A stretch of 64,000 nt of DNA from Nitrospirota bacterium (lineage in GTDB: Bacteria > Nitrospirota > UBA9217): positions 128,001-192,000 of the forward strand of contig CAWIYV010000011.1 of assembly GCA_963840455.1 (NCBI GenBank). Direction: 5' to 3'. Below the pieces are notes generated by a model. That model was not told where the DNA came from and did no database searches. It saw only the letters and a program-made list of their open reading frames with translations. Shown piece after piece: positions 16,907 through 36,180 of the stretch. Made by a program: the position numbers and the translations under genes. Each line of letters opens with the position of its first letter. Within the stretch, counting starts at the first letter, position 1.

Positions 16907-19416
16907 GCCCCGCCTTTCATGATGAGCTGCAGTGACCCGTGTTCGGGTTTTGACGGATCATTTTCGAGCCGGATCACTTCATCCGAACCCACAGGATAGA
17001 ATGATTCTGTAAATTCGCGCCATTCAAACCAGCCGCTACGCCTGAGCTCCGTACTGACAACGCCCCTTACGCCCGGGGTCTCCTGGATGCGAGCCTCTAA
17101 AACCGAGCGCTCGAGCGGCGTCCCGAAGGTGAAGTTGTCCGGGGAGAAGAAGCCCGGTTGTTGCTGAATCCCGCGTTTTCCAAGAAGGGCCTCCATGACC
17201 CGTTCCTTCACCTGTGTAGCATAGGCGTGCGGCACCACGCAGATGGTGATCCTCAAGTGCAGGTCAGCATACTTGGGATCGAGTACGTACACCTCTCGGC
17301 CTGCCTGGCGGAAACGGTCCATCTGGTCGCAGAGTTCCACACGCTGGACCTCCGAAAGAGTCACCGCGCCAAGCGGGTCCGGCGTCACGAACGCCGAAAG
17401 CCAACTGCCTGTCCAGCGAAAGATGGCCCCGGCCCGCTGGACCCAGGAAAGCCGTTCCGCGGCTTCGGCGTAATCTTCCGGCCGCACTGCCCGTAGAGGA
17501 AGCTCGCTGAACACATGGGGAGCCCGCAGTCGGATCTCTTCCGGCGTTTCAGGGTCTGTTCCGTTGGTTACGGGGAAGGGATTCGTAACCGTTTCGATAA
17601 AAACACCGAACATTCCGTCATCTATATCAAAATGCGTTATTGAATCCGCAGGCACATTCGTTTGCCGTCCGGTTCCGACACGATACATGACCTGGAAAAC
17701 CGTCCCCGGAGAGGGTATCGCACCAAACTCCTGGTCACCGAATCGAAGCGTGGTCCCTCTGCCATCGGCAAAGTCATAATGCACAATTTCCTGGCCATCC
17801 CGTCTGAATCCTACAACGCGCTTCCATGTCCCGTCATCAAGAGTAAAATGTTTTTCCATCGGATCTGATGCAAAGCGTTGGTCGTCCATTAAGGAAGACG
17901 GCATCCCCAGTAGTGAACGCCTCCATGTCCATGCTTCCTTCAGAGGCCATTCACGCTCCTTTTCGTCATACTCGACCTCGGCGATGCTGATCTCCGGGCA
18001 TGCCGTCTGTGGATCGCTGCCGAGCCAGTCCGCCCCCCGCCATACGAGCCCCTTGGCCTCTGCTCCGGACAGGCTGTAGAGATATGCGACCCTTCCGTTC
18101 GGGCCGACACGATTGACGGCCTGCTCAATTTTTTCGCGTTCTGCCACCGGCAGATCTACAGGCTCGGGGGCGTTACCAACAAAGAATTTCTCCTCCTGAG
18201 TCTTTCCCGCTGTAACGGGTACCATATTGGCATGAACTGACATGATACTCATGTCCATCTCAAATGGCAGGGCCTGTGCGTCCTCCCATTTGATCCGGGT
18301 AAGCTCATCACCCGTCAGCCTGTCTCGGATCTTTTTGTTTTTTATCTTGTCTTCGACCTCGATCAGACGTACCATCCACATCCGGGGCAGTGTTCCCGTC
18401 GTCTTAAGGAGCACCCACTTGCCTGGGAGTCTGTCCGGAGTAAGATCATCAAAAGGAAGATCTTTTTTGTATGAACCCTTTATATACAATTCGGTTGTGC
18501 CTGGGCTGAGACAAGGTTTATCGTTGTCCCAAATGTGGGGCTTAAATTCGTTCCGTAGGGCATCAACATCGTACGTTATAACAGATCGCGTCTCTGATAA
18601 ACCTTTCCCGATCTCAAAATCGATCTGCTCACCATTGTCAGCAATGGCCCACACATCCGCTCCTGCCGCTACTGTGGTCTTCTGCCCCTGCTTTACTTGC
18701 ACGTCGAGCCATGTCGATGATCCCAGACCGTCATGGACCGGATAATCCACCAGCCGGGCATGGCGCCGAAGCGATCGCCGCTGAGTTGCTGTTTCGAGAT
18801 AAGCCTCCCTGCCGATCCTGTCCTGATAGTATGCGAACTCGTCCCCCAAGGCGCTCATGACTTCCGCGAGCATCACTCCGGCATCCGCCTCGAGCCGGTC
18901 TTTCCAATCAGGATATCGCTGGGAAGCAAAATCGAGCAGTGCCCGCCGCAGGCTCCAGAAGTCCCGCGCCTGGTATTCTATCGTCACGTCATCTTGCGCT
19001 TCAGAGGGACATTCCGGATTTCTTTTCCTGCAGTCAACATCACTGCGACAGTTGGCCTTGAAGCTGAAGCAGACATCGTTGTAGTAGGGATCGATGCGGT
19101 CATCATCTATGTACAGCTTATAGATTGTAAAATCCCCTCGCATCTTGGTCAGTATTCGCAGCACAGGAATACCGTTCACTTCCGGCCATTCGAGCCCATT
19201 AACGGGGATAGGCGACAAGTTTGTGTCATTCTGCAGGCTGTAAATGCGGATCTTCTCTGGTTTCAAATCATCTATCAAAGGAACATCCAAGTCCGCCGGT
19301 GAAACAAGAAAATGCACTTCGAGCGTCATTTGCGAAGGATGGACATACACAAAATCAATCCCCGTAAGAGAGGTCTGTTGCTGAAGCAATGCAAGACGGC
19401 TCTGTGCATCCATCAC
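16903..19416 (-). CDS. baseplate J-like protein (second paralog)
   Basis: YQARDFWSLRRALLDF, EAYLETATQRRS, LRFGDQEFG, RAVRPEDYA. Confidence 0.88.
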   Translation of the reverse strand: MMDAQSRLALLQQQTSLTGIDFVYVHPSQMTLEVHFLVSPADLDVPLIDDLKPEKIRIYSLQNDTNLSPIPVNGLEWPEVNGIPVLRILTKMRGDFTIYKLYIDDDRIDPYYNDVCFSFKANCRSDVDCRKRNPECPSEAQDDVTIEYQARDFWSLRRALLDFASQRYPDWKDRLEADAGVMLAEVMSALGDEFAYYQDRIGREAYLETATQRRSLRRHARLVDYPVHDGLGSSTWLDVQVKQGQKTTVAAGADVWAIADNGEQIDFEIGKGLSETRSVITYDVDALRNEFKPHIWDNDKPCLSPGTTELYIKGSYKKDLPFDDLTPDRLPGKWVLLKTTGTLPRMWMVRLIEVEDKIKNKKIRDRLTGDELTRIKWEDAQALPFEMDMSIMSVHANMVPVTAGKTQEEKFFVGNAPEPVDLPVAEREKIEQAVNRVGPNGRVAYLYSLSGAEAKGLVWRGADWLGSDPQTACPEISIAEVEYDEKEREWPLKEAWTWRRSLLGMPSSLMDDQRFASDPMEKHFTLDDGTWKRVVGFRRDGQEIVHYDFADGRGTTLRFGDQEFGAIPSPGTVFQVMYRVGTGRQTNVPADSITHFDIDDGMFGVFIETVTNPFPVTNGTDPETPEEIRLRAPHVFSELPLRAVRPEDYAEAAERLSWVQRAGAIFRWTGSWLSAFVTPDPLGAVTLSEVQRVELCDQMDRFRQAGREVYVLDPKYADLHLRITICVVPHAYATQVKERVMEALLGKRGIQQQPGFFSPDNFTFGTPLERSVLEARIQETPGVRGVVSTELRRSGWFEWREFTESFYPVGSDEVIRLENDPSKPEHGSLQLIMKGGA

Positions 19417-19790
19417 ACTGTTACCTCCACATTGAGGTATCGCCGTTCCTGACGCGACTTCACTACGTAGGCAATTTGCACTATGAGCTTTTCCTCGACG
19501 GCCTCCGCCTTAACCCTATCAACACTGATCACACTGCCCAGCCATTTGTCCAGGGCCTGCAGGATCGTCACCTGCATGAGGCTCGCCGTGACGTCACTAT
19601 TGGGCGCGAAGATCATATTCCTCAGTCCACAGCCGAAATCAGGCCTATTGATCCGCTCACCCGATGAGGTAAGGAGCACCTGTTTGATCATTTGTTCGAC
19701 ATGCTGTGCATAGTCCGTTTCCTGCAGCAGGCGTCCCAGCCCGGTGTCGATCCCTATGGGATAATGAATAGATTGAATGTTCTTGCTCAT
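19413..19790 (-). CDS. GPW/gp25-family baseplate protein (Afp9-type)
   Basis: IKQVLLTSSGERINRPDFGCGL. Confidence 0.92.
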   Translation of the reverse strand: MSKNIQSIHYPIGIDTGLGRLLQETDYAQHVEQMIKQVLLTSSGERINRPDFGCGLRNMIFAPNSDVTASLMQVTILQALDKWLGSVISVDRVKAEAVEEKLIVQIAYVVKSRQERRYLNVEVTV

Positions 19791-20288: not shown

Positions 20289-20993
20289 CTATCCGGTTTT
20301 GACCCTCATCGATACAAGCTGCAAAGTAGCCGGTGGAAACGGCGGTACGGGAGGCGCCGGCGTGACCGGCAGCACGCCGAGCGCGAGCTGTCCCGGATGG
20401 ATGTGGCTCTGATACAGCGACACGAGCTGGTTCAGATAGGTGATCAGCTCGTCGCCGAACACCACGGGGTGCGTGGAGTTCTCCACCAGCTCGATCTGCG
20501 GCGCTTCTACGACTGCTTTGACAGCCCCTTTCACGGTGATCTTGCTCTGTTGGACCTCGATGGTCAGCATGTTGTTGCCGTTCTCGTCGCTTAAGCTGAT
20601 CTTCTGGCCGTCGTCGTCGAGAGTGACCATCAGACCCTGCCTGGTCCTGATGATCTTGAGCGGCGGCGTGGCTCCGGCGCCTGACTCGTTCTTCGGGAGT
20701 TGGTTATCGGCCCAGAAAAAACCTGTCCAAATGGGATACGACGGGTCACCAGCCTCGAATTCAACAAAAATACCTGTGCCCGTTTCCGGCTGCGCATAAA
20801 ACCCCATGCCGTCCCCTGCATAGGGTGTACACGGCATCGCCCATACCTCGAGGCCGCCCAGTACCGCCGGCACGCGGACCTTGATCCGTCCGCGCGATGT
20901 TGGATCATTATTGTCAGTGACCGTTCCCCGGTACTTTCCAAAATAACGGCTGCGCACCCAGTCAAGCAATTGTTCCTGCGAATCCTCGTTCAT
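20289..20993 (-). CDS. baseplate assembly protein V / gp5-like spike (OB fold)
   Basis: RYFGKYRGTVTDNNDP..GRIKVRVP, VEFEAGDPSYPIWTG; C-terminal HIH. Confidence 0.92.
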   Translation of the reverse strand: MNEDSQEQLLDWVRSRYFGKYRGTVTDNNDPTSRGRIKVRVPAVLGGLEVWAMPCTPYAGDGMGFYAQPETGTGIFVEFEAGDPSYPIWTGFFWADNQLPKNESGAGATPPLKIIRTRQGLMVTLDDDGQKISLSDENGNNMLTIEVQQSKITVKGAVKAVVEAPQIELVENSTHPVVFGDELITYLNQLVSLYQSHIHPGQLALGVLPVTPAPPVPPFPPATLQLVSMRVKTG

Positions 20994-20994
20994 A

Positions 20995-22053
20995 TCAACT
21001 TCCCCACCCGTTTCGCCACAATTCCATTTCCATGCGGTGCGATTCTGCATCGATGGTGTGCCGCACACCGGCTACGAAATAATCGCCGCTGTGCCTGCTG
21101 CCTGCCCCGCGGACCTTCACGAGCGTATGTGCGCGGACCAGCGTGCCGAGGGTGTCCAAGCTTGTCTGGCACGTGGCCTGGGTGAACCAGTCTGCCTCTA
21201 TCAGCGCCCCCTCACCTCGCGCCGTCAGATCGCCGGTGTCGTCTGCCGGAGCTGCCAGATGAATGGATCGGGTGTCGCCGGTGATCGCCTGTAGGCCCTG
21301 GGTACCCAGAATAGGCTGTGGTGTAGTAGCAACAGCGCCGTTCATCTCGGACAAGGTGTTCAGGTCCAGTTGGGACCCCTCTATGCTCGTTGGCCGCTCT
21401 GCATCCCAGGTGATGTCGAGCGTCTGTATTCTGGGCGAAGCCAGGTTGATCACCAACTCCGCGCTCGGCCCTCCTCTCAATGGCGGGCGCTTGAAGTGTG
21501 CGGTCTCTGTTCCCTGGGCGTCGCAGCTGATCCAGAACAGATAGCCGTTGCGCCGCGCCAGTCGGCGGACGAACCGAAGGTCGCTGTCGCGCTGAACGAG
21601 CGTGTGCTTCGCTTCGTAATGTCCCGCGCTGGTCGTTTGCACATCAGACGTGTACCCATACTTGCTGAGAATCGTCTGCACTGCATCGCTGTCGGTCAGG
21701 TCGGCCCAGATGGCTGACCTCGTCTCCCGGTCCATGATGATCGATGTGTCCGAGCCGAAGACTTCCAGTGTGGAACCCGCGCCTCCGTGCCGGAGCCGGA
21801 CCTGCTGTTTATGGACCGGACCCTTGACCAGGCAGTGGATCTGGCCGTCAATAGGAACCAGGACTGAGAGTTCGGAGCCGGCGTCGAGCCTGCCGTCTGT
21901 AAGGAGCGGGATGTCGCCCTCACTGATATCCAGATCGTATTGAATCTGGAACGTTGTTGCCTCGCTGATCCGTTCGCTTACAATCAATTTTCGCGCTTGA
22001 ATAAGCTCTGGATCCGGTTTGCCTTTGATGGCTATCGCAATGCCCAGTCCCAC
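20995..22053 (-). CDS. late control D / gp27-like hub protein
   Basis: VQRDSDLRFVRRLARRNG, VRGAGSRHSGDYFVAGVRHTI. Confidence 0.88.
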   Translation of the reverse strand: MGLGIAIAIKGKPDPELIQARKLIVSERISEATTFQIQYDLDISEGDIPLLTDGRLDAGSELSVLVPIDGQIHCLVKGPVHKQQVRLRHGGAGSTLEVFGSDTSIIMDRETRSAIWADLTDSDAVQTILSKYGYTSDVQTTSAGHYEAKHTLVQRDSDLRFVRRLARRNGYLFWISCDAQGTETAHFKRPPLRGGPSAELVINLASPRIQTLDITWDAERPTSIEGSQLDLNTLSEMNGAVATTPQPILGTQGLQAITGDTRSIHLAAPADDTGDLTARGEGALIEADWFTQATCQTSLDTLGTLVRAHTLVKVRGAGSRHSGDYFVAGVRHTIDAESHRMEMELWRNGWGS

Positions 22054-22340: not shown

Positions 22341-23039
22341 CTATAACGGAAGCATGTCCAGGATCGATTCAGCGGTATTTGCAAGGTTCAGCCGGGCCAG
22401 TACCTCTTTCTGCGTCCGGGTGTATTTATAGGCCTTGATCGCAAGCTCCTCGCCCATCGAGAGCTTCCGCCCAAGCTTCTTGAACGAATCCTCGGTGAGC
22501 ACCGTGAGCCCCACCGAGACCGTGGCCCGGATCGGGTAGAGTGTGGGCAGGAACTCCTGCTCGTCCACGGAGAAGCTTGTGACACGCACCGGCAGAACGC
22601 GTCCCGGCCCCCAGATGAAGAGCACGATCGGCACGCTCCCCCGCGGCACTACGTCACCTGAGCCGAAGATCTCGGGAAGCAGTTGACCCAGGAGTGAATC
22701 GCCCACCGGATAGAGCAACATTTCGAGGGCGCTGATCCGGTCAGCAACGCCGGATATCTTCGCCGCCGGGTGTTTCTCCGGTTCTTCCAGGGCGTCCGTG
22801 GCATCGAGCTCAAGCTTCAGCTCGAATGACTCTCCCGGATCATAGGGCTCTGCCGTGGTCTCCTTGGCTTGGCCGCCTCCTTCTTCTGTGGAGGCTGAAG
22901 AGGGTGTCATGGTCCTGCTTATGGTCTCCGGGTTGTATTGGAAAACGATCACGTTCGGGATCGGTCCCAGAAAATCCTCGGATAGCTTCACGAGGGCGCC
23001 TTTCACCAGTTTCGGGCTTCTCGAATATCCATTCGGCAT
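22341..23039 (-). CDS. CIS tube-initiator protein (Afp7-like)
   Basis: VFQYNPETISRT, VLFIWG..RVLPVRVTSFSVDEQEF...PIRATV. Confidence 0.85.
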   Translation of the reverse strand: MPNGYSRSPKLVKGALVKLSEDFLGPIPNVIVFQYNPETISRTMTPSSASTEEGGGQAKETTAEPYDPGESFELKLELDATDALEEPEKHPAAKISGVADRISALEMLLYPVGDSLLGQLLPEIFGSGDVVPRGSVPIVLFIWGPGRVLPVRVTSFSVDEQEFLPTLYPIRATVSVGLTVLTEDSFKKLGRKLSMGEELAIKAYKYTRTQKEVLARLNLANTAESILDMLPL

Positions 23040-23051
23040 ACTGTAACCTCG

Positions 23052-23645
23052 CTAAGTTCTGGACTTCTTACCGGCCAAGCTCTTTTTTGCGTTATTGATC
23101 TTGTCCGCGGCCGCAGGATGACGCTCAAGGATCAACTTTTCCCATGGAGCATAGAGATCTTCTTGCAGTTTGCCAGGTGTTGGCTCCAAATGTTCAACTA
23201 TATTTATTAGATGGATGCACCACTGACCGCCATATTCACCAATATCTGTCATCTCGCTCTCGGTCAACTTCTCTTTCTTCTTCTCATTGTCGCATCGAGT
23301 CCCTAATGCTTTGTCGAAGTTAATCCAAAGTTGCGCCTCATGATAGGCAAGATCCGGGTTGAGACTGAGGATAAAGTCACGGTTCTCCGACGGATTGCGA
23401 AAGATCTCCTCGTGGATGAATCGCTTCCGAAGATAGTCGGTCCATACTACCTGCTCTTTCTGGTTCTCTGGTTCGTGCGGCTCCATCTCTTGCATCTCAC
23501 GGTAGATTAACTTTTCAAACTCCTTTTTACGCTGTTCAGACTTCAGCTTCTCTATGCGCTTTGGCAACCAAACACCAAGAACAAAGAGGACTGAAGGCAT
23601 GAAAACAACATCGATAAAATCTTTCAAATTATCGAATCCCCCCAT
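23052..23645 (-). CDS. hypothetical protein with an N-terminal transmembrane segment
   Basis: Intact ORF with RBS; FIDVVFMPSVLFVLGVWL. Confidence 0.7.
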   Translation of the reverse strand: MGGFDNLKDFIDVVFMPSVLFVLGVWLPKRIEKLKSEQRKKEFEKLIYREMQEMEPHEPENQKEQVVWTDYLRKRFIHEEIFRNPSENRDFILSLNPDLAYHEAQLWINFDKALGTRCDNEKKKEKLTESEMTDIGEYGGQWCIHLINIVEHLEPTPGKLQEDLYAPWEKLILERHPAAADKINNAKKSLAGKKSRT

Positions 23646-23664: not shown

Positions 23665-24780
23665 CTACGAAAACACGGGCTTCTTGAAGTTTATGTGAAC
23701 GCAATGATTTGGCGGCTCCGGCTGCGTGCTGTTTATGGAAAATTCACCCTGTTCGCCGAATTCCGGGATCTGCGTTTTCAGGATATCGTCGAGAACCTTG
23801 AGATCGAGCCCGGAAACATCCATCGCTTTCCCGATTAGATGCGGCGAAGCATTCACCGCCTTGCCCTTCCAGGTGGTATTAGCAGGCGCGGCCACAAGCG
23901 GAAGCGTACGCTTATCAGAAGGGACACCCGGCCCTCCCCCGCCCCAGTATAAAGCCAGGAAAAACGGGACCCAAACATCCATATCCGCCACCGTGCACGA
24001 TGCGAATTTCTCCCAGTCAAGCGTACCCTTGAGCCAATCCGTCTTCTCGGCATAGGCATTAACGCTCTTTTTATTCTGTTTACAATACCCCCTGAGAATG
24101 TCGAGCTGTTTTTTCTGGTCTCGCTTTGCAGATCCGACCGTAGCCTTCTTTCCTTTCCCGAAGGTTCCAAGCTCATTGTGTTTCTCAATAACGTCTTTTG
24201 GGTTTTTCGCTGCGGCCGCTGCCGGTGTCTGTACTGCCGGCACCGGAGCTGCTTTTGGTGCTTTACCTTTCTCTTCACCGCCTGTTATAGATTTGATCAA
24301 TTCCCTTGCGTATTCTATGAGATCAGCTCCGAAACCTTTCTCTTTTTTCTCCGCTGCAGTAGGAATAAGGATGGTCTCACTTGCATTAAACCCGATTTTC
24401 TTCCCTTTGGCTGTTGACCAGGTCTTCACCTTTGAAGCATTCTTCTTTATCAAGTCCTCTGCCTTGACGTTGAATTTCGCCGCGATCCGTTCGATCGTAT
24501 CTCCGGACTTGACTTTGTATGTTTGTTCTTTCTGCGCAACGGGTGTCGCATTTGCCGGGCTGCCGCTATCCTTATCATATGCATCACCGACCGAAGCGAT
24601 TTTCTGCCCCGATGGAGCAATGGGACGGTAAGAGCCTTTAATCACACTATGATTGCCTAGACTATCCCGGGAAGTCTGTGCAGTTTGAAGTGACTTGCGT
24701 TGCAGCGTACTTGTCTCGCTTATTTGATAGGCCTTAATTTGACCTTTCGTCTGTTTCTTCTTAGTAGTTAGCTGTTTCAT
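23665..24780 (-). CDS. LysM domain plus M15-type zinc peptidase (putative eCIS cargo or lysin)
   Basis: LysM YKVKSGDTIERIAAKFNV; SAKRDQKKQ, SPHLIGKAMD (SxHxxGxAxD) and HCVH. Confidence 0.75.
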   Translation of the reverse strand: MKQLTTKKKQTKGQIKAYQISETSTLQRKSLQTAQTSRDSLGNHSVIKGSYRPIAPSGQKIASVGDAYDKDSGSPANATPVAQKEQTYKVKSGDTIERIAAKFNVKAEDLIKKNASKVKTWSTAKGKKIGFNASETILIPTAAEKKEKGFGADLIEYARELIKSITGGEEKGKAPKAAPVPAVQTPAAAAAKNPKDVIEKHNELGTFGKGKKATVGSAKRDQKKQLDILRGYCKQNKKSVNAYAEKTDWLKGTLDWEKFASCTVADMDVWVPFFLALYWGGGGPGVPSDKRTLPLVAAPANTTWKGKAVNASPHLIGKAMDVSGLDLKVLDDILKTQIPEFGEQGEFSINSTQPEPPNHCVHINFKKPVFS

Positions 24781-24843
24781 GCGGCTCTACACCTCATCAC
24801 GCACCAAGTCCCATTAACACGAAAGCTCTGAACTTAAGGTGTT

Positions 24844-25299
24844 CTAAAGTGTTTGCGAACCACGCGCAGTGGCTATCAATTCATCTTCCCAAAAATACCG
24901 GACCTCAATCGGCTTTTCAGCCTTGAGAGCAGTCAGTGGCACGACGAACTTCAGTCTGTACTGCTCAGGGCCCACTGCATCCCACCCCTCCTCTCCTTCT
25001 CTGGATATAGTGGTGATCTGACTGCCAGTCACTGACTGTCCGTCTTGAAAGATCTGAACCTTGTTTGTCGTGCCCCGCTCCTTTTCAGATCTCCAGATGT
25101 AATCCCATATGTCTGATTTACCGGTTGGTACAAGCAGATCGAAGACCACATTTGACTTCAAGACACTCAGATTGATCACTCGAAGCTCACCTTCCGGTAA
25201 CCAGTACTTCTTGCTCTGTGCAACCACGGGTGCCCCATTCAGTTGCATGATGATTTCCACAGCTTCCATCCCGGTCTCCTTCTGCTGTTGTAACGTCAA
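24844..25299 (-). CDS. hypothetical protein (5' end uncertain)
   Basis: Open frame continues upstream to an in-frame TGA at 25353-25351, preceded by ATG at 25362. Confidence 0.55.
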   Translation of the reverse strand: MTLQQQKETGMEAVEIIMQLNGAPVVAQSKKYWLPEGELRVINLSVLKSNVVFDLLVPTGKSDIWDYIWRSEKERGTTNKVQIFQDGQSVTGSQITTISREGEEGWDAVGPEQYRLKFVVPLTALKAEKPIEVRYFWEDELIATARGSQTL

Positions 25300-25609
25300 C
25301 TCACCTATGCGAATTACCGGCCTGATGTTTATCTTTATGTCGCGGATCCTTCAATAATTCATCGAGTGCTTTCTGCGCAGTTCTTCCGAGCAACTTTTGT
25401 TTTTGCATCCTTTATCGGTTCACGTAGAAATTCTGGAGCTCCTTAAGATTCAAAAGAGTGAAAAACTTATTCACAATATCTTTTTTAGGTTCTTCTTTTA
25501 GTTGTCCAATTCATTTATGAGTGTCAATATGTGCCTAACTGAGCACACCAGCGGGAAACTGGCACGATTCTGCCTGTTCCATTATTTACCGTTCAGCATT
25601 TTCCCCACT

Positions 25610-27829
25610 CTAACGAGTTACTCCAGCCTTCTTTATAAGTTTAGGATCCGCGATAACGCTTGGTGGGCTTCCATCCTTATGAAAGACCCGCCAAATCCGG
25701 CCTTCTTCGTCAAAGACGAAAAGGTCTTGCTTCAGATTCAAAGCCTGCTTCTGAAAGAACTCCACACAATCCTGGCACATCCACTTATCAACGGATATTG
25801 GCTGTCCAGGGTTGGCAACAGCTAACTGCTTCTCTGCATGACTCGCGTTCCATTCGCCGACAAAATTTTTGTCTCGGGGATGTGGTTTCAATTTATGTCC
25901 GATTTTCTCAGCTCGTTCCGCTACTGCCTCAGAACTTACTCTCTTTAATGGTTTTCGGCTGACCGCCCTCCTGTAGATGGTAACTCCTCCAGGTTGCTGT
26001 TCAATGCTCACCGCGACGGTCGCACCTTTCTTTGCTCGTTTCTGCGGTAACTTCTCACGCATTCGAGCAGTCGCTCCTGGTGCTGGTTCCTGCCCCGCAC
26101 CCACTGTTTTTGGTACCCTGCCTTTTTCGACTATTACCTTGGCAGGTTTAACACGTTTGCCTTCGACATAGCTTCCGCCTGTTTCTATTTGTCGGGGGGC
26201 ATCTCCTAGGCGGGCTGTTTTCGCACCTTCTTCTATTTCACCACCGACGCGCGTAACAGTACCGCCAGCCTTCTCAGCCTCACGTATTTTGCCTACGTAG
26301 CGATTGGCCTGTAGGATGCGCCGTAAACCGGGAATGTGCTCCAATAAGTCTATCAATCTCCTCGCGAATCGACTCGTTCTCAATGCTTTGCCAGCCGCCG
26401 ATACTCCGCGCGCCACCCACGCTTCTGGGCCAAGAAACAGCAAGGCGATCTCGAACACCACATAACCCTCTACTCTCCCAACCTTGAAACCCTTCCAAAA
26501 AGGGCTCGCTTTTTTGAAGTCGGTATTATACCAGCGGCCGGCCATTTGCCCAACTTGCTGCCCTATCTCGTATCCAAATTCGATTAGAAACGCTGGATAT
26601 CGACGCATCTGCTCGATGAATTCAGTTAGTCCCCTCTTCACTTCTTGGGCGTAACGTGCTTGCGCCGCCCGCTTAGCTTTATATCCCTGAGGATCCTGCA
26701 AAAACTCGATTCCTTCTTTGATCCCCAATTGGAGCAATCCCTGAGGGGTCAGATATTTAGCAACAAAAGAGGCAAGTTCTGCAATTCCAACGACATTGTC
26801 TTTCAGGCTCTCAAGCGCTCCTACTGGAGCGCCCAACTGAACACCACCGTTGAAAGCCAAAAGGTTCATTGTCTCGCTCAGTTCGTTACTTAGAGTAGCC
26901 CACTCGTCCGCATGAATCGTCTGTCGCGCCCCTATCAAGAAGCCTTGAGCAAAGCCAGTGGTTATTGTGGCTAGCCGATAGGCAGCCTTCAGTTCGCCTG
27001 GCATCCAGGCTGATATCTTTTCCCCGTACTTTCGTTCGTAAGCCACCAACATCCGCTGTGCTGCGGATTGCATCAGTATTCCGAGCTGGTTTTCAAGCTC
27101 TGCTCGTTCTGAACTCTGTCCCGGGTTATCTCGGAGCCATTTTTTGATGAGCTTTATTTCCCGCTGAAGCTTCTCGTCTGACATCAGTTGCACGTTTGGT
27201 GACTGATTAAGCGAGAGTGGTTGTCGCGCCAGTCTAACTCCGGATGAACCCCACACTCGTATCGGCCCTCTCCCTTTTATGGCGGCCCCAGCCGCCCAAT
27301 CAGCCGCCTGTTCCAAGGCACCGCTCTGAGAGAGGGAAAGCGATGTCGTCCCGCCACGTGACTGTTGTATTACGTGTGCCAACTCGTGAGCCACAAGGCG
27401 ATATCCTTCGCTACTTTCGAGTTTGTACCGGCCATATCCAAAGACTAGATCTTGACCCACCGTGTAAGCTGATGCGTTTACCGTTCGCGCCGACTTCGCT
27501 GCCCTCGCATCAGTATGCACCCTCACGTTACTGAAATCATGCCCGAAGCGCGGTTCAAAATGCGCGCGCGTTTTCGGATCAATCGGTTGGCCGGGAGAGC
27601 GCAGGACCTCCTGTATAATGGGCGGTACTGCTTTTGGCCTGTTTTCATTATGCGGCTTGTGTTTCGCAATGTTATTGCCAAAACTTCGCAGCACGCCATG
27701 ATTCCCCATTGTGCCTTGAAGATCATGACCCGAATGCGCAAAGCCCTGCTGCTGCGACGAAATTTCAGCATTCTGCACTTTCCGTGCATTACGCTCTGTC
27801 TGCTTCTTCTTGACTGCGACCTGTTTCAC
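25610..27829 (-). CDS. DUF4157 (eCIS core) protein with a C-terminal Zn-dependent nucleic-acid deaminase toxin domain
   Basis: FEPRFGHDFSNVRVHTD...LVAHELAHVIQQ; C-terminal SHAEKQL...MCQDC; GTG start overlaps the upstream stop (GTGA). Confidence 0.88.
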   Translation of the reverse strand: MKQVAVKKKQTERNARKVQNAEISSQQQGFAHSGHDLQGTMGNHGVLRSFGNNIAKHKPHNENRPKAVPPIIQEVLRSPGQPIDPKTRAHFEPRFGHDFSNVRVHTDARAAKSARTVNASAYTVGQDLVFGYGRYKLESSEGYRLVAHELAHVIQQSRGGTTSLSLSQSGALEQAADWAAGAAIKGRGPIRVWGSSGVRLARQPLSLNQSPNVQLMSDEKLQREIKLIKKWLRDNPGQSSERAELENQLGILMQSAAQRMLVAYERKYGEKISAWMPGELKAAYRLATITTGFAQGFLIGARQTIHADEWATLSNELSETMNLLAFNGGVQLGAPVGALESLKDNVVGIAELASFVAKYLTPQGLLQLGIKEGIEFLQDPQGYKAKRAAQARYAQEVKRGLTEFIEQMRRYPAFLIEFGYEIGQQVGQMAGRWYNTDFKKASPFWKGFKVGRVEGYVVFEIALLFLGPEAWVARGVSAAGKALRTSRFARRLIDLLEHIPGLRRILQANRYVGKIREAEKAGGTVTRVGGEIEEGAKTARLGDAPRQIETGGSYVEGKRVKPAKVIVEKGRVPKTVGAGQEPAPGATARMREKLPQKRAKKGATVAVSIEQQPGGVTIYRRAVSRKPLKRVSSEAVAERAEKIGHKLKPHPRDKNFVGEWNASHAEKQLAVANPGQPISVDKWMCQDCVEFFQKQALNLKQDLFVFDEEGRIWRVFHKDGSPPSVIADPKLIKKAGVTR

Positions 27830-28062
27830 TTCAAAACCCTCAGGATTGCATCGGAGATCATTGTCACCAGTCGTTCCCGTGTTGCTCCCGTCGTGACGGG
27901 AATTTTCAATTCTATTGCGCCGAGACGGCGGTCCTTTTGCTGTGGAGGGAGTTTATCCGCCACGCGACGCATCACGTCCGCGCCCAGCCTCTGTGCTTCG
28001 CCCTTGCTGTGTCCGGGCAGCCGCAAAATAAAATCTTCTATCTTCACCTCATCCTTTTGCAT
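27826..28062 (-). CDS. small eCIS-associated hypothetical protein
   Basis: Overlaps both the ATPase and the DUF4157 gene; IEDFILRLPG. Confidence 0.7.
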   Translation of the reverse strand: MQKDEVKIEDFILRLPGHSKGEAQRLGADVMRRVADKLPPQQKDRRLGAIELKIPVTTGATRERLVTMISDAILRVLK

Positions 28063-30154
28063 AGCTCCGCAGCCGATCCCGCTCCCGCCCGCTCAGGACC
28101 CGGCCTTCCTTCATGAGCTCTCGCTCCACGCCCCGGAGGAGATGGGTCAGGCCCATGGGTCTACGGTCCCGGCGTGCCACAAACAGGGCCGTGAGTATTG
28201 CGAACTTGATTTGTGCTCCGGTCAGCTCCAGGTGCTCGGCGAGCGCAGTGACCTCGTGTTCCAGCTTTTTAGTGTGCTCCGGCCCCGCCAGTTCTTCGGC
28301 TATCTTCCGCCAGATCTCTCCGCGCTGGGCCGAGTTCGGTTTCGGAAACTCCAGCACATAGCGGATTCGTCTGAGGAAGGCGGGATCGATGTTGCTTTTC
28401 CGATTTGTCGCGAGGATCGCGACGCCGCGGTAGTTCTCAACGGCCTGGAGCAGGTATCCCGTATCGGTATTTGCAAATCGGTCATGGGCGTCTTTAATTT
28501 CCGTCCTCTTGCCGAACAGGGCGTCCGCCTCGTCGAAGAGCAGCACGATGTCCATGGTGGCTGCGCGGGAAAGGATGCGTTCCAGGTTCTGGGAGGTCTC
28601 GCCGACATACTTGCTGACCACTGCGGAAAGGTCCACGCGAAACACATCAAGCCCTAGACTCGCGGCAATGACCTGGGCCGCCATGGTCTTGCCCGTTCCC
28701 GGCGGGCCGCTGAACAAGGTCAGTAGTCCTCTGCCTTGGGGAAAGAGGCGACGTCTTTTCGGCTGCTCCCAGAATTCAACGCGTTCCCGGGCCTCGAAGG
28801 CAAGATCTTCCAGGGTGTCGCGGAGATGGTCCGGAACGACGATGTCGTCCCACGTGAAGGGGCACTCGAGCATCTGGGCGAGACTGTCGAGCTTCTTTCG
28901 GTTGGACTCACGCACGAAGGTAAGAGCGGTCTCAGCGCTCTGGATGTTCTGCCGCGCCGCTGATGCGATTTCACCTATCTGCACCCGGTGCTGGGACACA
29001 AGCGTGTCGAACTCCTCGGATTCCCACGATTCCGATTGGGGCACAAAGTGCCGCCAGAGAAGGCGTCGTTCCTCCTGGGATAGTTCCGGCAGTTCGACAC
29101 GGAGGTCTGCGACTCCCGGAACAGGGGGGACCTGCTGCGCTGCTTCCGCAATGACGAACTGCAGGGGAAAAAGAGGAACCGTTACTGGCCATGCCCTCCG
29201 AAGCGGGTTCTCGCCATGCCACGCAAGGGCGCACCGTTCGAGATACGCTTGCCGCTGCGCATGCAAGAACGCCGTATGCCAGGTCTGATCGTCAACCAGG
29301 TCTGTATCGATCGCGAGCAGCGGAAGGCCGAGTCGCGAGCAGATTCCCGCGGCAAAAGTGCGCCGGCCGCTGCTGGATGGTCCGGTAATGTGCAGCCGCA
29401 CGGTCTGGGGAGCTTTTCCCTGGAGCAGTTCCTTGATCGTCGATGCGGTCTCGCTCATCGGCCAGTTCTTCAGGGGCTCAAGGGGATCTTGGAAACGGCT
29501 GATTCCCGCGAGCCGTTCATCAAGATAATCCTCGCCTGCCAGCCAGTCGCAGATGAAGGGGTCACAGATCAGCCTGGCGGGCTCGCCGGAACCGACCTCG
29601 TATTGCCTTACTAGGCCCCACCGCCTGAGCGCAGACTCAGGGCTCCAATGACTTCGATGAACATGTCCGAAGAGCCGCGCGGCCAGTTCCGCAGTCGCGT
29701 ACCCCCGTCCTGCGTGGTCGTGCAGGTAGGCATAAACGCGGGAGAGCGCGGGATCAAGGGCCGGAGCCAGACAGAGCTGTAAAAGGTCTGATTCCGCTGG
29801 GCTGATGTCGAAAAGGGCATGGAGCTGCGCAAAGCGGGACTTGGTGTCCGCAGCTATGGCTGCTTCGAGTCGATCTATTTCATAGTTCAACTGTTTCATA
29901 CCGGCGTCAGATGCAAACCACGCTGCCTCCGCTTCGGGCGAGTCCCGGTTGTCAAGATAGGTGTCGATCTCGGCATGGGTCACTGCCACCGTGCCACCCG
30001 GCGCTCCTTCCTCTGCCCAGAGTTTCCTGAGCCAGGCGACGCGCCGCTTTGCGAGGAGACGCATCCGCGACAACACCCGATCGAGCGCTGCATCGAGCTT
30101 CTCCTGTCCCCTTTCGAATTCCCTGATGGCATGTTGCTGTCGTGTTCGCGTCAT
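28049..30154 (-). CDS. AAA+ ATPase (Afp15/Pvc15-type)
   Basis: GPPGTGKT, VSKYVGET, LLFDEADALFGKR, DAHDRFAN, ATNRKSNIDPAFLRR; ATG at 30154 overlaps the upstream stop. Confidence 0.93.
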   Translation of the reverse strand: MTRTRQQHAIREFERGQEKLDAALDRVLSRMRLLAKRRVAWLRKLWAEEGAPGGTVAVTHAEIDTYLDNRDSPEAEAAWFASDAGMKQLNYEIDRLEAAIAADTKSRFAQLHALFDISPAESDLLQLCLAPALDPALSRVYAYLHDHAGRGYATAELAARLFGHVHRSHWSPESALRRWGLVRQYEVGSGEPARLICDPFICDWLAGEDYLDERLAGISRFQDPLEPLKNWPMSETASTIKELLQGKAPQTVRLHITGPSSSGRRTFAAGICSRLGLPLLAIDTDLVDDQTWHTAFLHAQRQAYLERCALAWHGENPLRRAWPVTVPLFPLQFVIAEAAQQVPPVPGVADLRVELPELSQEERRLLWRHFVPQSESWESEEFDTLVSQHRVQIGEIASAARQNIQSAETALTFVRESNRKKLDSLAQMLECPFTWDDIVVPDHLRDTLEDLAFEARERVEFWEQPKRRRLFPQGRGLLTLFSGPPGTGKTMAAQVIAASLGLDVFRVDLSAVVSKYVGETSQNLERILSRAATMDIVLLFDEADALFGKRTEIKDAHDRFANTDTGYLLQAVENYRGVAILATNRKSNIDPAFLRRIRYVLEFPKPNSAQRGEIWRKIAEELAGPEHTKKLEHEVTALAEHLELTGAQIKFAILTALFVARRDRRPMGLTHLLRGVERELMKEGRVLSGRERDRLRSYAKG

Positions 30155-31446
30155 GGCATCTTGATCCACTGCGGAGAAGACTCCGCGCCGTTCACGAAAA
30201 TCCGCAGCGGATAATTTTTACCCGGCTCCAGCGTGGTCGGCAGCTGCACGGTGATCTGGGACGTGGAATCGATTGTGAACTCGCCGCTTGCGAGCGGCCC
30301 GCCAGAGGAGAGCGCCAGTCTTATCTGCCCCACATATACCTGCACGCCCCCCGTGGGAATGTCTGCGTGCCGGAAGAGATATCCGGTTATGACGACCTTA
30401 TGGACAGCATCGGGTGGAGCAACAGAATCAATCCGCGGAGTAATGGTGAAAGGGCAAGCGTTGGATCGATGTTCGATATCCTGCGTCCCCGATGGTGTGG
30501 CCAGTTTTCTGGTGACTTTTGCAATTACAGCGTATACTCCTGGAATCACATCGTTTCCGTTGGCCTTTTCCTGTGCCACGGACGAAAGCTCGATGGCTGT
30601 TGCAGCAAGGCTCCATGAAGCGGTAACGTCAACCGGATCGCTCCAGCGCTGATGACACAGCAATAAAGACGTCCGCTCGCCGGTAAAGCCTGCACCTTTA
30701 AATTTGATCCTGCTCTTTTCGATTGCCGGGTCGTTAGGTGGCAATCCTGTTTTTACAGAAGGCGCCTGGGCGGGTTGAAGCGTCAGGTTTTGTGTTGCTA
30801 ATGTGCCTGGTATTAGGAAGGACATAGTGCTTTGACTGCTGTCTATCCTCGGAGCCCCGTTGACAAAGGTCTGAATCCCGTATGCCAAGACTCGGCCAGC
30901 CCGGGATTTCGACTCCTCCGGCTCAAGCAGAGCGACAGAAACCTGGTAATAGGCGGCAAGACGGAGGGGCGATGATCCGGCTGTCCAGTAGCTCACGGCA
31001 TCATGGTGTGCAACAGGCTGAAGCACGATCCGCAGACGGTTATTATCCCCTTGGAGGTCCGCGGGATAAATGCTCGTTCCGTCAATCGCTGTTGCATCGT
31101 CTATGATCGGATAATCGCGAAGGGCCTTAATAGCAATGCCCATCATCTGCTGTTCAAGAAGACTGTCTTCAGAAGTGCTGCGAGCGGTAAGCTGGTAAAA
31201 GAGATTCAGCCCCATGGGCGTATAACGGACGGGTGGTGTGTCGTTGCCTAGTGCAGGCAGATTTTTGTAATGCGCATCCTCTGCTATGTGATAGAGATAC
31301 AGGCCGATGGAGTCGCCGGTCAGCAGGTTCGGCGGCTGGGGTGAAACAGTAGGAGCAGTAGCACCCCATGCCGGCGATGCTCTGAAATATTCCGAGATCA
31401 GTGTGGTGAGCGCCTGGGTCACCAGGCTGATATTCAGCAATGCCAT
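30151..31446 (-). CDS. DUF4255 (Pvc16/Afp16-like) cap/terminator protein with C-terminal Ig-like domains
   Basis: IGLYLYHIAEDAHYKN, LNLFYQLTA, LAAYYQVSVALLE. Confidence 0.88.
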   Translation of the reverse strand: MALLNISLVTQALTTLISEYFRASPAWGATAPTVSPQPPNLLTGDSIGLYLYHIAEDAHYKNLPALGNDTPPVRYTPMGLNLFYQLTARSTSEDSLLEQQMMGIAIKALRDYPIIDDATAIDGTSIYPADLQGDNNRLRIVLQPVAHHDAVSYWTAGSSPLRLAAYYQVSVALLEPEESKSRAGRVLAYGIQTFVNGAPRIDSSQSTMSFLIPGTLATQNLTLQPAQAPSVKTGLPPNDPAIEKSRIKFKGAGFTGERTSLLLCHQRWSDPVDVTASWSLAATAIELSSVAQEKANGNDVIPGVYAVIAKVTRKLATPSGTQDIEHRSNACPFTITPRIDSVAPPDAVHKVVITGYLFRHADIPTGGVQVYVGQIRLALSSGGPLASGEFTIDSTSQITVQLPTTLEPGKNYPLRIFVNGAESSPQWIKMP

Positions 31447-33099: not shown

Positions 33100-33606
33100 T
33101 TACTTCTCTGTTGGTTCGGGAACTTCGACATCGCGCTCCCAACCTTCATTCTGCACGACCATGGATTCGATGGCCACGGAGTTTCCTCCGGCATCCAGCT
33201 CCGGCAATGCCGTATACTCGGAAACCCAGCAGCGATACACCTTGTACGCCTTTGCCACGCTTCCTTGCTCGTTCAGAAGCTCAATGATGATGTCTTTGCG
33301 GAAGTTCTTGAGAGAGATGGCGGCGTCGCCTCCGGTGTTGTAGATGAGCTTTGCCCAGTTCTCGAACTCCACATCGTGCGTCACGCCGCGCTCAAGGTGG
33401 ATGGGCTCAAATTTCCATTTCGACGGTGCAACGCGTGAAGTACTTGGATCGCCTCCCTCGCGGTGCGTGACCGGCTCCGTCGACTGCTTCAGAGCGCCGA
33501 TCTTGCTGACACCCGCGACGTATTTGCCGTCCCACTTGATCCGGAACTTGAAGTTCTTGTACGGATCGAATCGATGCGCATTAACGGGGAATTGTGGCGC
33601 GCCCAT
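33100..33606 (-). CDS. phage tail tube protein (T4 gp19 family)
   Basis: RFDPYKNFKFRIKWDG, HREGGD, IHLERGVT, ELDAGGNSVAIE. Confidence 0.95.
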   Translation of the reverse strand: MGAPQFPVNAHRFDPYKNFKFRIKWDGKYVAGVSKIGALKQSTEPVTHREGGDPSTSRVAPSKWKFEPIHLERGVTHDVEFENWAKLIYNTGGDAAISLKNFRKDIIIELLNEQGSVAKAYKVYRCWVSEYTALPELDAGGNSVAIESMVVQNEGWERDVEVPEPTEK

Positions 33607-33633: not shown

Positions 33634-36180
33634 TTAGACTTGGACCTGTCCAGCCATCTGCTGTAGTTTGATAATTACGAATTCTGCCGGCTTGAGAGGT
33701 GCAAAGCCCACGTGAATGTTGACTATGCCAAGATTGATGTCATTCTGCGTCGTCGTCTCCTTGTCGCATTTGACAAAATAGGCATCTCGCGGCACCTGGC
33801 CCTGGAACGCTCCCTGCCGGAAGAGATCGTGCATGAACGCCCCGACGTTGAGGCGAATCTGCGACCAGAGTGGCTCGTCGTTGGGTTCAAAGACAACCCA
33901 TTTTAGATTTCGATAGAGAGTTTCTTCTATGAAGAGAGCCAATCTCTTAACGGGTATATATTTATACTCGCTCGCAAAACTGTCATCGCCATCCATGGTG
34001 CGTGCGCCCCAATTGACAATGCCGTTGGGGAATAGTCGCAAGGTATTGACCGCTTTGGGATTCATGTAACCATTTTCTGTATCTGAAAAATTATACTCTA
34101 GGCCTTGTACACCTCTCAGATCGGCTTCGGTTCCTGCCGGGGCTTTCCACACGCCACGGGCGCTATCGATGCGCGCCATGAGTCCGGCAATGGCACCACT
34201 CGGGCCGATTGTTACAGTACCACCGTTTTCACGCACTTTGATTCTTGGAAAAAATACAGCACTCGAGTTCTTTACTAGTCCAATTCGCAGTGAATTTACT
34301 CCATCAGTGGGACTGACAGCGATATTAGAATCCTTCCATTTCTCAGGTGGATCAATCAGGAGGAACGCTCGACGTTTTTCACAAAAAACACTTGCAGGCG
34401 GCCAAAGACTTGCTGATGTCTTATCATCATGATCTCTATCTTTTGGCAAAACCATTATATTGAACAAATCCACTTCGCTGTCGATAATCTTAAAAGCTTT
34501 TTCATAATCAGGCAACTGAGGTGTGCCGCCATCATTTCCCGCTATCCCGGGAACAACCTGACATGCGCTGGATCCGCTGGTGCCGAGGCAATAGCATCGC
34601 GTATTTTTTATGAAGCTTGGACCGACATCTTTTCCTCCACCTGCTATGCTGCTCGTGCTGATATTCGTTGATATGTTTTCAGTTTTTTCAGTGCTCTTTA
34701 TTACGAGGCGTGCGCCCCACACCTCAGCACTCCAGACAAAATCCCGTTTTTTTACCCGCACGCTGTTAATTGCTTCCGCAATTATATTCAGCTTTTCTCT
34801 GACACCCCGGGCACCATTATTTACGTTTGTCGCGCTACTATCGTGATACATACTTGCCACGTTACCCGACGGCAAGGGAGGGGTCGTCGTGAGTTTGTAA
34901 GGCCCTGTTAAATCAATATCGGTTCCAGCAATCGTAATTCTGTCAAAAGCTGTTTGATCAGATTGGGAAAATTCATCGAGATCATCTATGTTAAACGTGC
35001 CTCCTGATGGATCTGTCGGGCGAAAGACGATTCCGTTTGGGGCCGGTCGCTTTTTAGCATATTTAGATATTTCAAGCCCACCTAGAGCCGGACCCAGCAT
35101 CAGAGGGGCGGCGAGGTCTTTATCAGCCGCCGGCTCAATAAGTACATCTCCTTTGGCTGATGCGATAATAATGTAGTAAGTAATTTGATTATCCTGACCT
35201 GGATAGCTGTTCGGGCCTGTATAGAAGGGAAGTGCAGTAAGCCCGGCCGGGGTATAACTAGAATTTATGCATACGTATACCTTCGCTCCAAATGCGAGAC
35301 TGTCGTTAATAGTCTTCTCGACCACACCCCCTATGTTATTCCATATTGTATCGTTAGTATATAATTGCATATTCGCGGCGCCACCGCTCCCGTAAATGGG
35401 ATGAGCCGCATCAAGAAATGTAATAGCGGATAGATCGACATCTACAAAAGGATTACCGTCAACGCTGATTCTGAATTTATTTCCAAGTGCATTAGCATTG
35501 GCCCCAAACAGTTGTGAAATTTGTTGGGCAAAAAAAGGATGGTCATTGTTTTTAGCGGAAATCGGTCTCCCCGATTGTGAGTACCCATAAGCCGCTTCAG
35601 TTCCGGGGCCGCCGCTGACATCTGTAATGTCGACTAAGGCCGAGTTTTGAGTTACAAGCGTCGGTGCAAATCGTGGGCTATTCGGATCCATGCATAATTC
35701 TCGATATATCTCGCTCTCAGATTCAGAGAGAGAATCTCCTCTCTTTATCATTCGGAATACTCTGAGATTGAAAGTGGACTCTGGTCGTTGGGTATTGTAG
35801 TCAACGGCAATACGAATTTCATCTCCGGCAACACCCGCTGATTTAGCAGTGATCTTTATAGAGTCGGCACTGGCATCTTCGTTTTTTATTGTTATTTCAG
35901 ACTTTCTCCATGTGTTATCTGCGATGCGCATGACATAACAATCTGTCCCGCCGTTCATAAAAAACATTTTCACCGCTCTCACGAGGTCGCTTCCGGCGTC
36001 AAGAGCTGTAAATTTCCGTTCGAACGCATCAAAGCTTGAACATCGATTCGGTTTGAACAATTCGCCTTTCTTCGCTCGGCCAATGAACATCGCAGTTGAA
36101 GTTCCAACTCCTACAATGGTTCTTACTCCACTTGGGATTTCTTCTACATAAACGCCCGGATACGTCGGATTTACTGGCAT
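33634..36180 (-). CDS. contractile tail sheath protein with a large internal insertion
   Basis: YPGVYVEEIPSG, RGVWKAPAG, WGARTM, WVVFEPNDEPLW, VGFAPLKPAEFVII. Confidence 0.95.
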   Translation of the reverse strand: MPVNPTYPGVYVEEIPSGVRTIVGVGTSTAMFIGRAKKGELFKPNRCSSFDAFERKFTALDAGSDLVRAVKMFFMNGGTDCYVMRIADNTWRKSEITIKNEDASADSIKITAKSAGVAGDEIRIAVDYNTQRPESTFNLRVFRMIKRGDSLSESESEIYRELCMDPNSPRFAPTLVTQNSALVDITDVSGGPGTEAAYGYSQSGRPISAKNNDHPFFAQQISQLFGANANALGNKFRISVDGNPFVDVDLSAITFLDAAHPIYGSGGAANMQLYTNDTIWNNIGGVVEKTINDSLAFGAKVYVCINSSYTPAGLTALPFYTGPNSYPGQDNQITYYIIIASAKGDVLIEPAADKDLAAPLMLGPALGGLEISKYAKKRPAPNGIVFRPTDPSGGTFNIDDLDEFSQSDQTAFDRITIAGTDIDLTGPYKLTTTPPLPSGNVASMYHDSSATNVNNGARGVREKLNIIAEAINSVRVKKRDFVWSAEVWGARLVIKSTEKTENISTNISTSSIAGGGKDVGPSFIKNTRCYCLGTSGSSACQVVPGIAGNDGGTPQLPDYEKAFKIIDSEVDLFNIMVLPKDRDHDDKTSASLWPPASVFCEKRRAFLLIDPPEKWKDSNIAVSPTDGVNSLRIGLVKNSSAVFFPRIKVRENGGTVTIGPSGAIAGLMARIDSARGVWKAPAGTEADLRGVQGLEYNFSDTENGYMNPKAVNTLRLFPNGIVNWGARTMDGDDSFASEYKYIPVKRLALFIEETLYRNLKWVVFEPNDEPLWSQIRLNVGAFMHDLFRQGAFQGQVPRDAYFVKCDKETTTQNDINLGIVNIHVGFAPLKPAEFVIIKLQQMAGQVQV

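Follow-up and report, generated by a model that had tools for sequence, protein, structure and literature searches.

What directs unrelated proteins into one and the same extracellular contractile injection system (eCIS) when only one of them bears the cargo marker DUF4157? The question is raised by a stretch of 64,000 nucleotides, hereafter the window, from Nitrospirota bacterium (GTDB lineage Bacteria; Nitrospirota; UBA9217), at positions 128,001 to 192,000 of contig CAWIYV010000011.1 (assembly GCA_963840455.1). The minus strand of the window, on which all of its features described below lie, carries an intact eCIS operon, including baseplate J. This operon encodes a predicted cargo protein with DUF4157, protein A (739 residues, 25610..27829), and a predicted cargo protein without it, protein B (371 residues, 23665..24780), and both start with a related leader of 48 residues. 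Since a single operon combines a cargo with DUF4157 and a cargo without it, and both bear the leader, we argue that the leader rather than DUF4157 is the address. By analogy with characterised systems, our favoured reading, to which we give a probability of about 60%, is that the 48 residues form the conserved core of a disordered cargo-loading sequence specific to this system, which the loading machinery, and within it most likely the AAA+ ATPase, would recognise.

A leader common to two unrelated proteins

The leader comprises residues 1-48 of protein A (27686..27829) and residues 1-48 of protein B (24637..24780). Each copy opens with MKQ and KKKQT, followed by a spacer of 30 residues and by GNHGV in A or GNHSV in B. 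BLASTP aligned the two proteins over exactly this segment, with 16/48 identities, 28/48 positives and no gaps (E 8e-6), which bears out the gap-free leader with 16 identities (MKQ, KKKQT, GNH.V) that an earlier note on this DNA had described. The similarity also ends where that note had placed its end: no further BLASTP segment was found under E 1, and codons 49-96 have 4/48 residues in common. The in-register BLOSUM62 score of the two leaders is 79, against -16.6 ± 12.7 for composition-preserving shuffles (z = 7.5), and none of 200,000 shuffles reached it (maximum 56). Among 8,277 N-termini of open reading frames (ORFs) from the same genome, the next-best partner scored 17 for A and 21 for B.

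The identities cluster at the two ends of the leader, with 8/11 in residues 1-11, 4/30 in residues 12-41 and 4/7 in residues 42-48. They define two conserved patches (1-11 and 42-48) held at constant spacing, the variable 30-residue spacer between them being free of insertions and deletions. At the nucleotide level, 25, 27 and 15 of 48 sites are identical at codon positions one, two and three, respectively; different codons are used at 8 of the 16 identical residues, and the 60 nucleotides 5' of the two genes are identical at 15/60 positions. These three features indicate that the leader has been conserved as protein and is old, rather than the product of a recent DNA duplication. A recombination handle was ruled out, the DNA identity over the leader being only 67/144.

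Both leaders are hydrophilic and basic. Over residues 1-35 they average -1.28 and -1.21 on the Kyte-Doolittle scale (values of -1.2 or lower occur in 4.8% of 3,718 ORFs of the genome), their most hydrophobic 15-residue window reaches 0.11-0.16, and residues 6-21 carry a net charge of +5 in each. Lysine and arginine together account for 8 and 10 of the 48 residues, and glutamine for seven in each. Neither leader shows a Sec or Tat export signal by hydropathy, there being no hydrophobic core. In an AlphaFold2 model of protein B, computed from an 11-row alignment, residues 1-82 have a predicted local distance difference test score (pLDDT) below 50 and no secondary structure. Since the predicted disorder of B runs to about residue 82, the 48 residues are the conserved part and perhaps not the whole of a signal.

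Domains and homologues of proteins A and B

Protein A starts with a GTG codon that overlaps the stop of the preceding 78-residue gene (GTGA), with GAGGG 7 nucleotides 5' of it; protein B starts with an ATG, preceded by GAGGTG at 9 nucleotides. Residues 82-159 of A (27353-27586) match eCIS_core/DUF4157 (PF13699; E 3.1e-31, 107.8 bits against a cut-off of 22) and include an HExxH sequence, HELAH; A is the sole DUF4157 protein of the genome. Near its C-terminus, residues 629-670 (25820-25945) match the SsdA_C deaminase family (PF24120; E 6e-12, 46.4 bits against a cut-off of 27). On this match above the cut-off, protein A is predicted to be an SsdA-type deaminase toxin. Reading of its sequence revealed HAE and CQDC (a CxxC), which we take to be the zinc-binding HxE and CxxC residues of SsdA-type enzymes. 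No homologue of the part that follows DUF4157 was found in the related loci fetched for comparison.

Protein B is of a different kind. The DUF4157 profile gives no match in it at E <= 0.01, and the 37 residues between the leader and the LysM domain are too few for a 79-residue DUF4157 domain. LysM (residues 86-140) is the only domain of B matched by a profile, and it is modelled with confidence. The C-terminal domain (residues 190-371) is modelled at a pLDDT of about 90 and shows a weak match to the LAS-type zinc-peptidase fold, its residues H314, D321 and H362 being invariant in 11/11 sequences (LAS-type peptidases bind zinc through H-x6-D and a distal H). Its best structural matches in VIA-align are the C-domain of VldE (9flh; Z 6.7, root-mean-square deviation 2.4, 73 residues aligned), 2ibg (Z 5.3) and 1lbu (Z 5.0), that is, LAS-type zinc peptidoglycan peptidases and Hedgehog N-domains, all below the level that proves a fold. 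Foldseek returned LysM matches and weak VanY rows (E 0.6-1.2) for the B model, and a B-family profile run against the PDB sequences found LysM matches only, the peptidase domain having no Pfam or PDB sequence match. With moderate confidence, we interpret protein B as a LysM-anchored, LAS-like peptidoglycan peptidase.

We identified ten homologues of protein B that are 41-51% identical to it. DUF4157 is present in five of them (P0002-P0005, P0009) and absent from the other five (P0006-P0008, P0010, P0011), and members of either kind all retain an N-terminal region. One homologue (locus L068) lies directly after an eCIS ATPase gene and before sheath and tube genes; another (L067) is an orphan adjoining a transposase. 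Judged by domain content and gene position, the B family is an eCIS cargo family.

Comparison with characterised loading systems

That N-terminal leaders load eCIS cargo is established for other systems. In the Photorhabdus virulence cassette (PVC), an N-terminal signal of about 50 residues (N50) directs unrelated effectors into the tube and Pvc15 is needed (PMC9054023; PMC11495950); the statement on which the earlier proposal leaned, that PVC leaders of about 50 residues act in a Pvc15-dependent manner, agrees with PMC9054023. N50 has few conserved residues, and single alanine changes in it were without effect (PMC9054023). Like PVC, the system in the window combines an N-terminus of about 50 residues with an AAA+ ATPase, and PVC effectors, like protein B, are devoid of DUF4157. 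Unlike N50, the leader consists of two sharply conserved patches at a fixed spacing, and the operon belongs to another eCIS lineage.

The closer parallel is AlgoCIS, in which the cargos Cgo1 and Cgo2 require a common disordered N-terminal domain (NTD) and Alg15 for loading and DUF4157 is dispensable (PMC8894135; 10.64898/2026.05.27.728243). As in the window, two cargos of one eCIS share a disordered N-terminus, differ in their C-terminal domains and are encoded with a cognate AAA+ ATPase in the cluster. The systems differ in that both AlgoCIS cargos have DUF4157 and protein B does not; no sequence similarity to the AlgoCIS NTDs is claimed. The same study reports that NTDs are alike within one system and not between systems (10.64898/2026.05.27.728243), and the window leaders follow this rule, A and B being alike and no relative being found elsewhere.

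Danov et al. 2024 modelled eCIS signals as hydrophilic over the first 35-50 residues, positively charged at residues 6-21, disordered, and with aromatics among the first eight residues (PMC11297309). The window leaders resemble this model in hydrophilicity, in charge at residues 6-21 and, as predicted for protein B, in disorder. In the effectors Sle1 and Sle2 of Streptomyces lividans (PMC13277306), a DUF4157-less effector likewise lies beside a DUF4157 protein in a contractile injection system (CIS) cluster, and the effector N-terminus matters for association. There, however, the N-terminus of Sle1 consists of a coiled coil of 440 residues that has tape-measure proteins as relatives and is not a short disordered tag, and the DUF4157 partner is a small separate adaptor.

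Since the PVC and AlgoCIS work is published, the principle of a loading leader is already known and the finding is to that extent less novel. It is plausible, on this analogy, that the A/B leader extends the principle with a natural cargo that has the leader and no DUF4157, and with a candidate general motif. The window operon would be the natural counterpart of the AlgoCIS deletion experiment, and its two patches at a 30-residue spacing offer a precise and cheap set of mutants, of a sort that the PVC signal peptides did not offer.

Distribution of the leader

A profile built from the two leaders, run over 41,545 six-frame ORFs of the genome and over 1,750 ORFs of at least 20 residues in the window, picked out A and B alone in each case. 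It had no match in 60 relatives, nor in the 12,775 ORFs contained in 62 loci that surround related ATPases. The scan for more effectors with such a profile, which had been suggested as a check, was thus fruitless beyond A and B in the genome and the 60 relatives. A word-indexed library of 5.8 billion proteins yielded A only, and a library of 1.84 billion representatives yielded A and one other protein; this second match falls in an internal repeat of a 2,077-residue beta-helix-like protein, and we read it as chance. Searches with phmmer, using each leader singly against the related loci, gave nothing under E 3.

The absence from relatives says little, because only 3/60 of them have a Pvc16_N gene and the CIS of the same genus is of a different type. 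The latter (L076/L077, G001:C70) has sheath, tube, cap and hub genes, and no ATPase, DUF4157 or 78-residue gene was found within 40 kb of it. The best reading of these searches is that the leader is system-specific.

The giant DUF4157 proteins of L005, L006 and L009 have N-termini that look like the leader by eye (M[KST]Q..., K[KR].T, [GS]NH). We rejected them as relatives: a profile of the three sequences ranks neither A nor B, and a profile of five sequences recovers nothing but those five. In the loci most closely related to that of the window (L006, L009, L011, L019, L021, L029), the cargo slot downstream of the ATPase is filled not by two smaller genes but by one giant of 2,189-2,450 residues, whose two DUF4157 domains are separated by about 1,450 residues.

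The 62 related loci contain 47 DUF4157 domains. In six of these loci (L007, L013, L014, L015, L022, L027), co-encoded proteins have pre-DUF4157 regions in common (20 BLAST pairs), so it is common for the cargos of one system to have an N-terminal region in common. Pairs made of one protein with DUF4157 and one without were found in two CIS clusters. On the CIS contig of Modestobacter marinus (L074/L075, G064:C181, from the record of L039), which encodes an ATPase, Pvc16_N and baseplate J, a B homologue with LysM and no DUF4157 (44% identity across 331 columns, E 6e-78) has a DUF4157 protein of 1,408 residues or more in its vicinity; the N-termini of the two are 18/41 identical (E 0.007) and end in a GN motif. 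In a Cohnella CIS cluster, a 664-residue protein without DUF4157 adjoins a 210-residue protein with it, and a 17-residue motif is identical at 10/17 positions between them (E 8e-4). Modestobacter marinus is cultured and could serve to test the same question of DUF4157 and leader.

A wider N-terminal motif

The N-terminal regions of eight of the ten B homologues contain the pattern [LM]Q[RQG]xxGN. Protein A has LQGTMGN at residues 37-43. Protein B has only the GN, at residues 42-43, and MAFFT aligns this G42-N43 with the GN of the homologues. The leader and the motif are linked as follows: A resembles B significantly, B is homologous to motif proteins, the GN is aligned, and the distance from the N-terminus matches. 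This chain is suggestive of a relationship at the sequence level, which is statistically unproven.

We built a 41-column profile of the motif from 12 proteins, leaving out A and B and including no DUF4157 residues. Against the 5.8-billion library it retrieved 86 proteins at E <= 10, and 21 at E <= 1e-3; the 86 include 8 training proteins and a few that are near-identical to training loci. PF13699 is found in 23 of the 86 by precomputed Pfam and in 24 by a local profile, leaving 62/86 without DUF4157. The other domains present are VanY, SH3_3, PG_binding_1, Endonuclea_NS_2 and Aspzincin_M35; most of the proteins have no Pfam domain, and one bears the name YwqJ-like deaminase in its source record. 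The pattern itself occurs in 85/86 of the retrieved proteins, which the word index partly forces, although it does not force the position. It always falls in the first 100 residues of proteins that are 84-1,695 residues long, with the GN at a median of residue 44 (quartiles 39 and 49.5) and within residues 35-55 in 60/85.

The motif co-occurs with CIS genes. In a sample of 151 Actinomycetota genomes, it was found in 9 (match at E <= 0.01) and the cap gene Pvc16_N in 15, with both in 8. The counts with both, motif only, cap only and neither are 8, 1, 7 and 135 (one-sided Fisher p 1e-8). They become 7, 1, 7 and 135 without the seed genome G064 (p 9e-8), 7, 1, 6 and 135 without the unpublished genomes G211 and G153 (p 5e-8), and 6, 1, 6 and 135 without all three (p 5e-7); as kinship among the genomes violates independence, the p-values exaggerate the strength of an association of motif and CIS. 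Motif and cap gene share a contig in G064, in G071 (2/7 matches) and in G211 (2/3 matches), at distances that range from less than 1 kb to some 30 kb. They are more than 500 kb apart in G195, and fragmented assemblies are undecidable in this respect. Across five genomes, 5/14 motif ORFs have DUF4157 and 9/14 do not, and one of these nine adjoins a small DUF4157 gene.

On this evidence we put forward, tentatively and with slightly more doubt than belief, that the A/B leader could be a diverged member of a widespread CIS cargo tag, (V)L-x-LQR-x-x-GN-x-A-V-x-x-LL, situated about 44 residues in and heading hundreds of unrelated toxin-like proteins with or without DUF4157. Such a tag would be at odds with the statements of three sources that eCIS signals have no conserved sequence (10.64898/2026.05.27.728243; PMC11297309; PMC9054023). 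No NCBIfam model covers the N-terminal regions, and the strings LQRTAGN, QRTAGN, LQRxxGN and AGNRAV had no match in the literature text searched, although figures and supplements could already show the motif. If true, LQRxxGN would allow CIS cargo that escapes the DUF4157 marker to be found by sequence, and might matter more than the leader itself.

In the window's own genome, the pattern [LM]Q[RQG]xxGN occurs 38 times in 5.10 million six-frame residues, mostly in one DNA repeat family. This family, which lies outside the window (for example G000:C11:4028-4258 and C11:248510-248725), translates to SSLQQAAGNLRSS.

Proposed loading mechanism and alternative explanations

In the mechanism that we favour, A and B would be synthesised in the cytoplasm of the producer, each with a tag made of the basic patch M-K-Q-x3-K-K-K-Q-T and the patch G-N-H-x-V, with exactly 30 residues between them. 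The tag would most likely be recognised by the Pvc15/Alg15-type AAA+ ATPase encoded two genes upstream of A, possibly together with the 78-residue protein. The ATPase would unfold the cargo and thread it into the inner-tube lumen while the tube assembles, and contraction would later expel it. Once ejected, A may act as an SsdA-type deaminase and B as a peptidoglycan peptidase anchored by its LysM domain. The DUF4157 domain of A would be accessory and not the address.

As a putative packaging signal, the leader has in its favour the position of the two genes in the operon, its hydrophilic, basic and disordered character and its presence on unrelated proteins; the signal may continue past the 48 residues. 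The further suggestion that it works with or without DUF4157 fits protein B, five of the ten B homologues and the Modestobacter and Cohnella pairs, and does not fit the general pattern in the 62 loci. There, 20/20 significant pairs link two DUF4157 proteins, so that a DUF4157-independent leader is not the rule in related loci. This weighs against the favoured reading, as do several other points. With relatives of the leader undetected, its conservation rests on the one pair A/B. Neither leader has an aromatic among its first eight residues, a feature of the model of Danov et al. that is a propensity and not a requirement, and that study states that it detected no specific conserved sequence (PMC11297309). 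Motif profiles made from the B homologues, or from 84 motif proteins, do not recognise A and B significantly: among 8,277 N-termini of the genome, A ranks 25th and B 991st, and earlier profiles gave A an E of 1.9 within the window. Finally, a DUF4157 adaptor for a DUF4157-less effector has been proposed in print (PMC13277306).

This last point leads to the strongest of the alternatives, which we nevertheless regard as unlikely: the leader might dock not onto the ATPase but onto a structural or adaptor protein, such as the DUF4157 of A, the tube initiator or the spike complex, and B might enter via A or the baseplate, like Streptomyces Sle1/Sle2. In the window, as in the clusters of Modestobacter, Cohnella and G071, a motif gene without DUF4157 does adjoin a DUF4157 gene. 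However, A bears the leader in cis with its own DUF4157, which would be superfluous if an adaptor did the work; the motif ORFs of G195 lie more than 500 kb from DUF4157 genes; and the AlgoCIS cargo is reported to be loaded without DUF4157 and not without the NTD (10.64898/2026.05.27.728243). Less probable again is a pro-peptide or processing site tied to the DUF4157 zincin, by which toxins inactive in the producer would be cut, for instance near GNH.V, at or after delivery. The HExxH is intact in A, the GNH.V patch could be a recognition site, and a maturation or processing role for DUF4157 has been suggested by Geller et al. (PMC8213781) and in the PROCIS preprint (10.64898/2026.05.27.728243). 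Yet 62/86 motif proteins lack DUF4157, and the wider motif, which reads GN[RA] at this place, does not retain the histidine of GNH. A pro-peptide role would in any case be compatible with a role in loading.

Two further explanations concern the proteins and the statistics rather than the signal. Protein B might be no cargo but an enzyme that serves the producer in lysis or release, perhaps together with a 197-residue membrane protein encoded next to it, the common N-terminus then serving regulation or timing. Its LysM and peptidoglycan-peptidase-like domain, the small one-helix protein that follows and the release of eCIS particles by lysis (PMC8213781) would suit this idea, which we hold to be highly improbable: half of the B homologues carry the cargo marker DUF4157, B homologues sit in the cargo slot of eCIS loci, B is without an export signal, and the 197-residue protein has no homologue beside other B-family members. 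That the likeness of the leaders is due to chance, to the composition of lysine- and glutamine-rich N-termini or to a DNA-level signal (translation initiation, regulation) is scarcely credible. Both leaders are compositionally biased, but the shuffles described above preserve composition and never reach the observed score; a DNA-level signal is contradicted by third codon positions and upstream DNA that look random, with the first and second positions conserved.

The ATPase and the neighbouring genes

The genes run in the order sheath, tube, Pvc16_N, AAA+ ATPase, 78-residue gene, A, 151-residue ORF, B, 197-residue ORF and CIS_tube, with the gpD hub, spike OB domain, gp25 and baseplate J listed thereafter, and the slot of A and B after the ATPase is the slot of DUF4157 cargo genes in related loci. 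The presumed loader is a Pvc15/Alg15-like AAA+ ATPase (28049..30169) with a variant winged-helix N-domain (PF22977, 9.3e-20) and an AAA domain (PF00004, 3.3e-27), whose Walker motifs are invariant in a 24-sequence alignment. A complex prediction that paired a 24-row ATPase alignment with a 2-row leader alignment scored 0.00, which is evidence neither way. The most similar ATPases, at 45-56% identity, belong to metagenome-assembled genomes from soil and sediment that span many phyla, so the operon looks horizontally acquired. An ISL3 transposase gene (39670-40686) beyond the activator gene described below fits such an acquisition.

The gene for the 78-residue protein (27826..28062), between the ATPase and A, is kept after the ATPase in 32/32 loci (L004-L035). 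The protein belongs to no Pfam or NCBIfam family, and no known fold matched its model (pLDDT 85), which has two helices and two extended segments. It may represent an accessory of this eCIS clade that has gone unrecognised, with a possible role in loading. Two ORFs follow the cargo genes and encode candidate immunity proteins: a 151-residue ORF after A (24844..25299, probable ATG at 25269) and a 197-residue ORF after B (23052..23645) with one N-terminal hydrophobic helix, for which the assignment is unsupported. No homologues of either were found in the fetched related loci, and an Atlas search with the 141-residue and 78-residue proteins returned unnamed clusters only.

In the 311-nucleotide gap between A and the 151-residue ORF, a 35-codon ORF (25301-25408) reading MQKQK...AGNSHR looks leader-like by eye. 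It is out of frame with the next ORF and has a poor ribosome-binding site, and as a leader it was rejected, being scored by neither leader profile. It could be a decayed third leader, or nothing.

The structural genes of the operon comprise the sheath (33634-36180), the inner tube (33100-33606), the Pvc16_N cap or terminator protein (30151..31446), the tube-initiator-like CIS_tube protein (22341-23039), the gpD hub (20995-22053), the spike OB domain (20289-21068) and gp25 (19413-19790). Just 5' of the sheath gene, a sigma-54-dependent activator (36781-38205) may regulate the operon. At its distal end, a trypsin-like peptidase (6000-7037) is encoded without the leader, and a 1,316-residue DUF6519/beta-helix protein (8137-12087) is probably the tail fibre.

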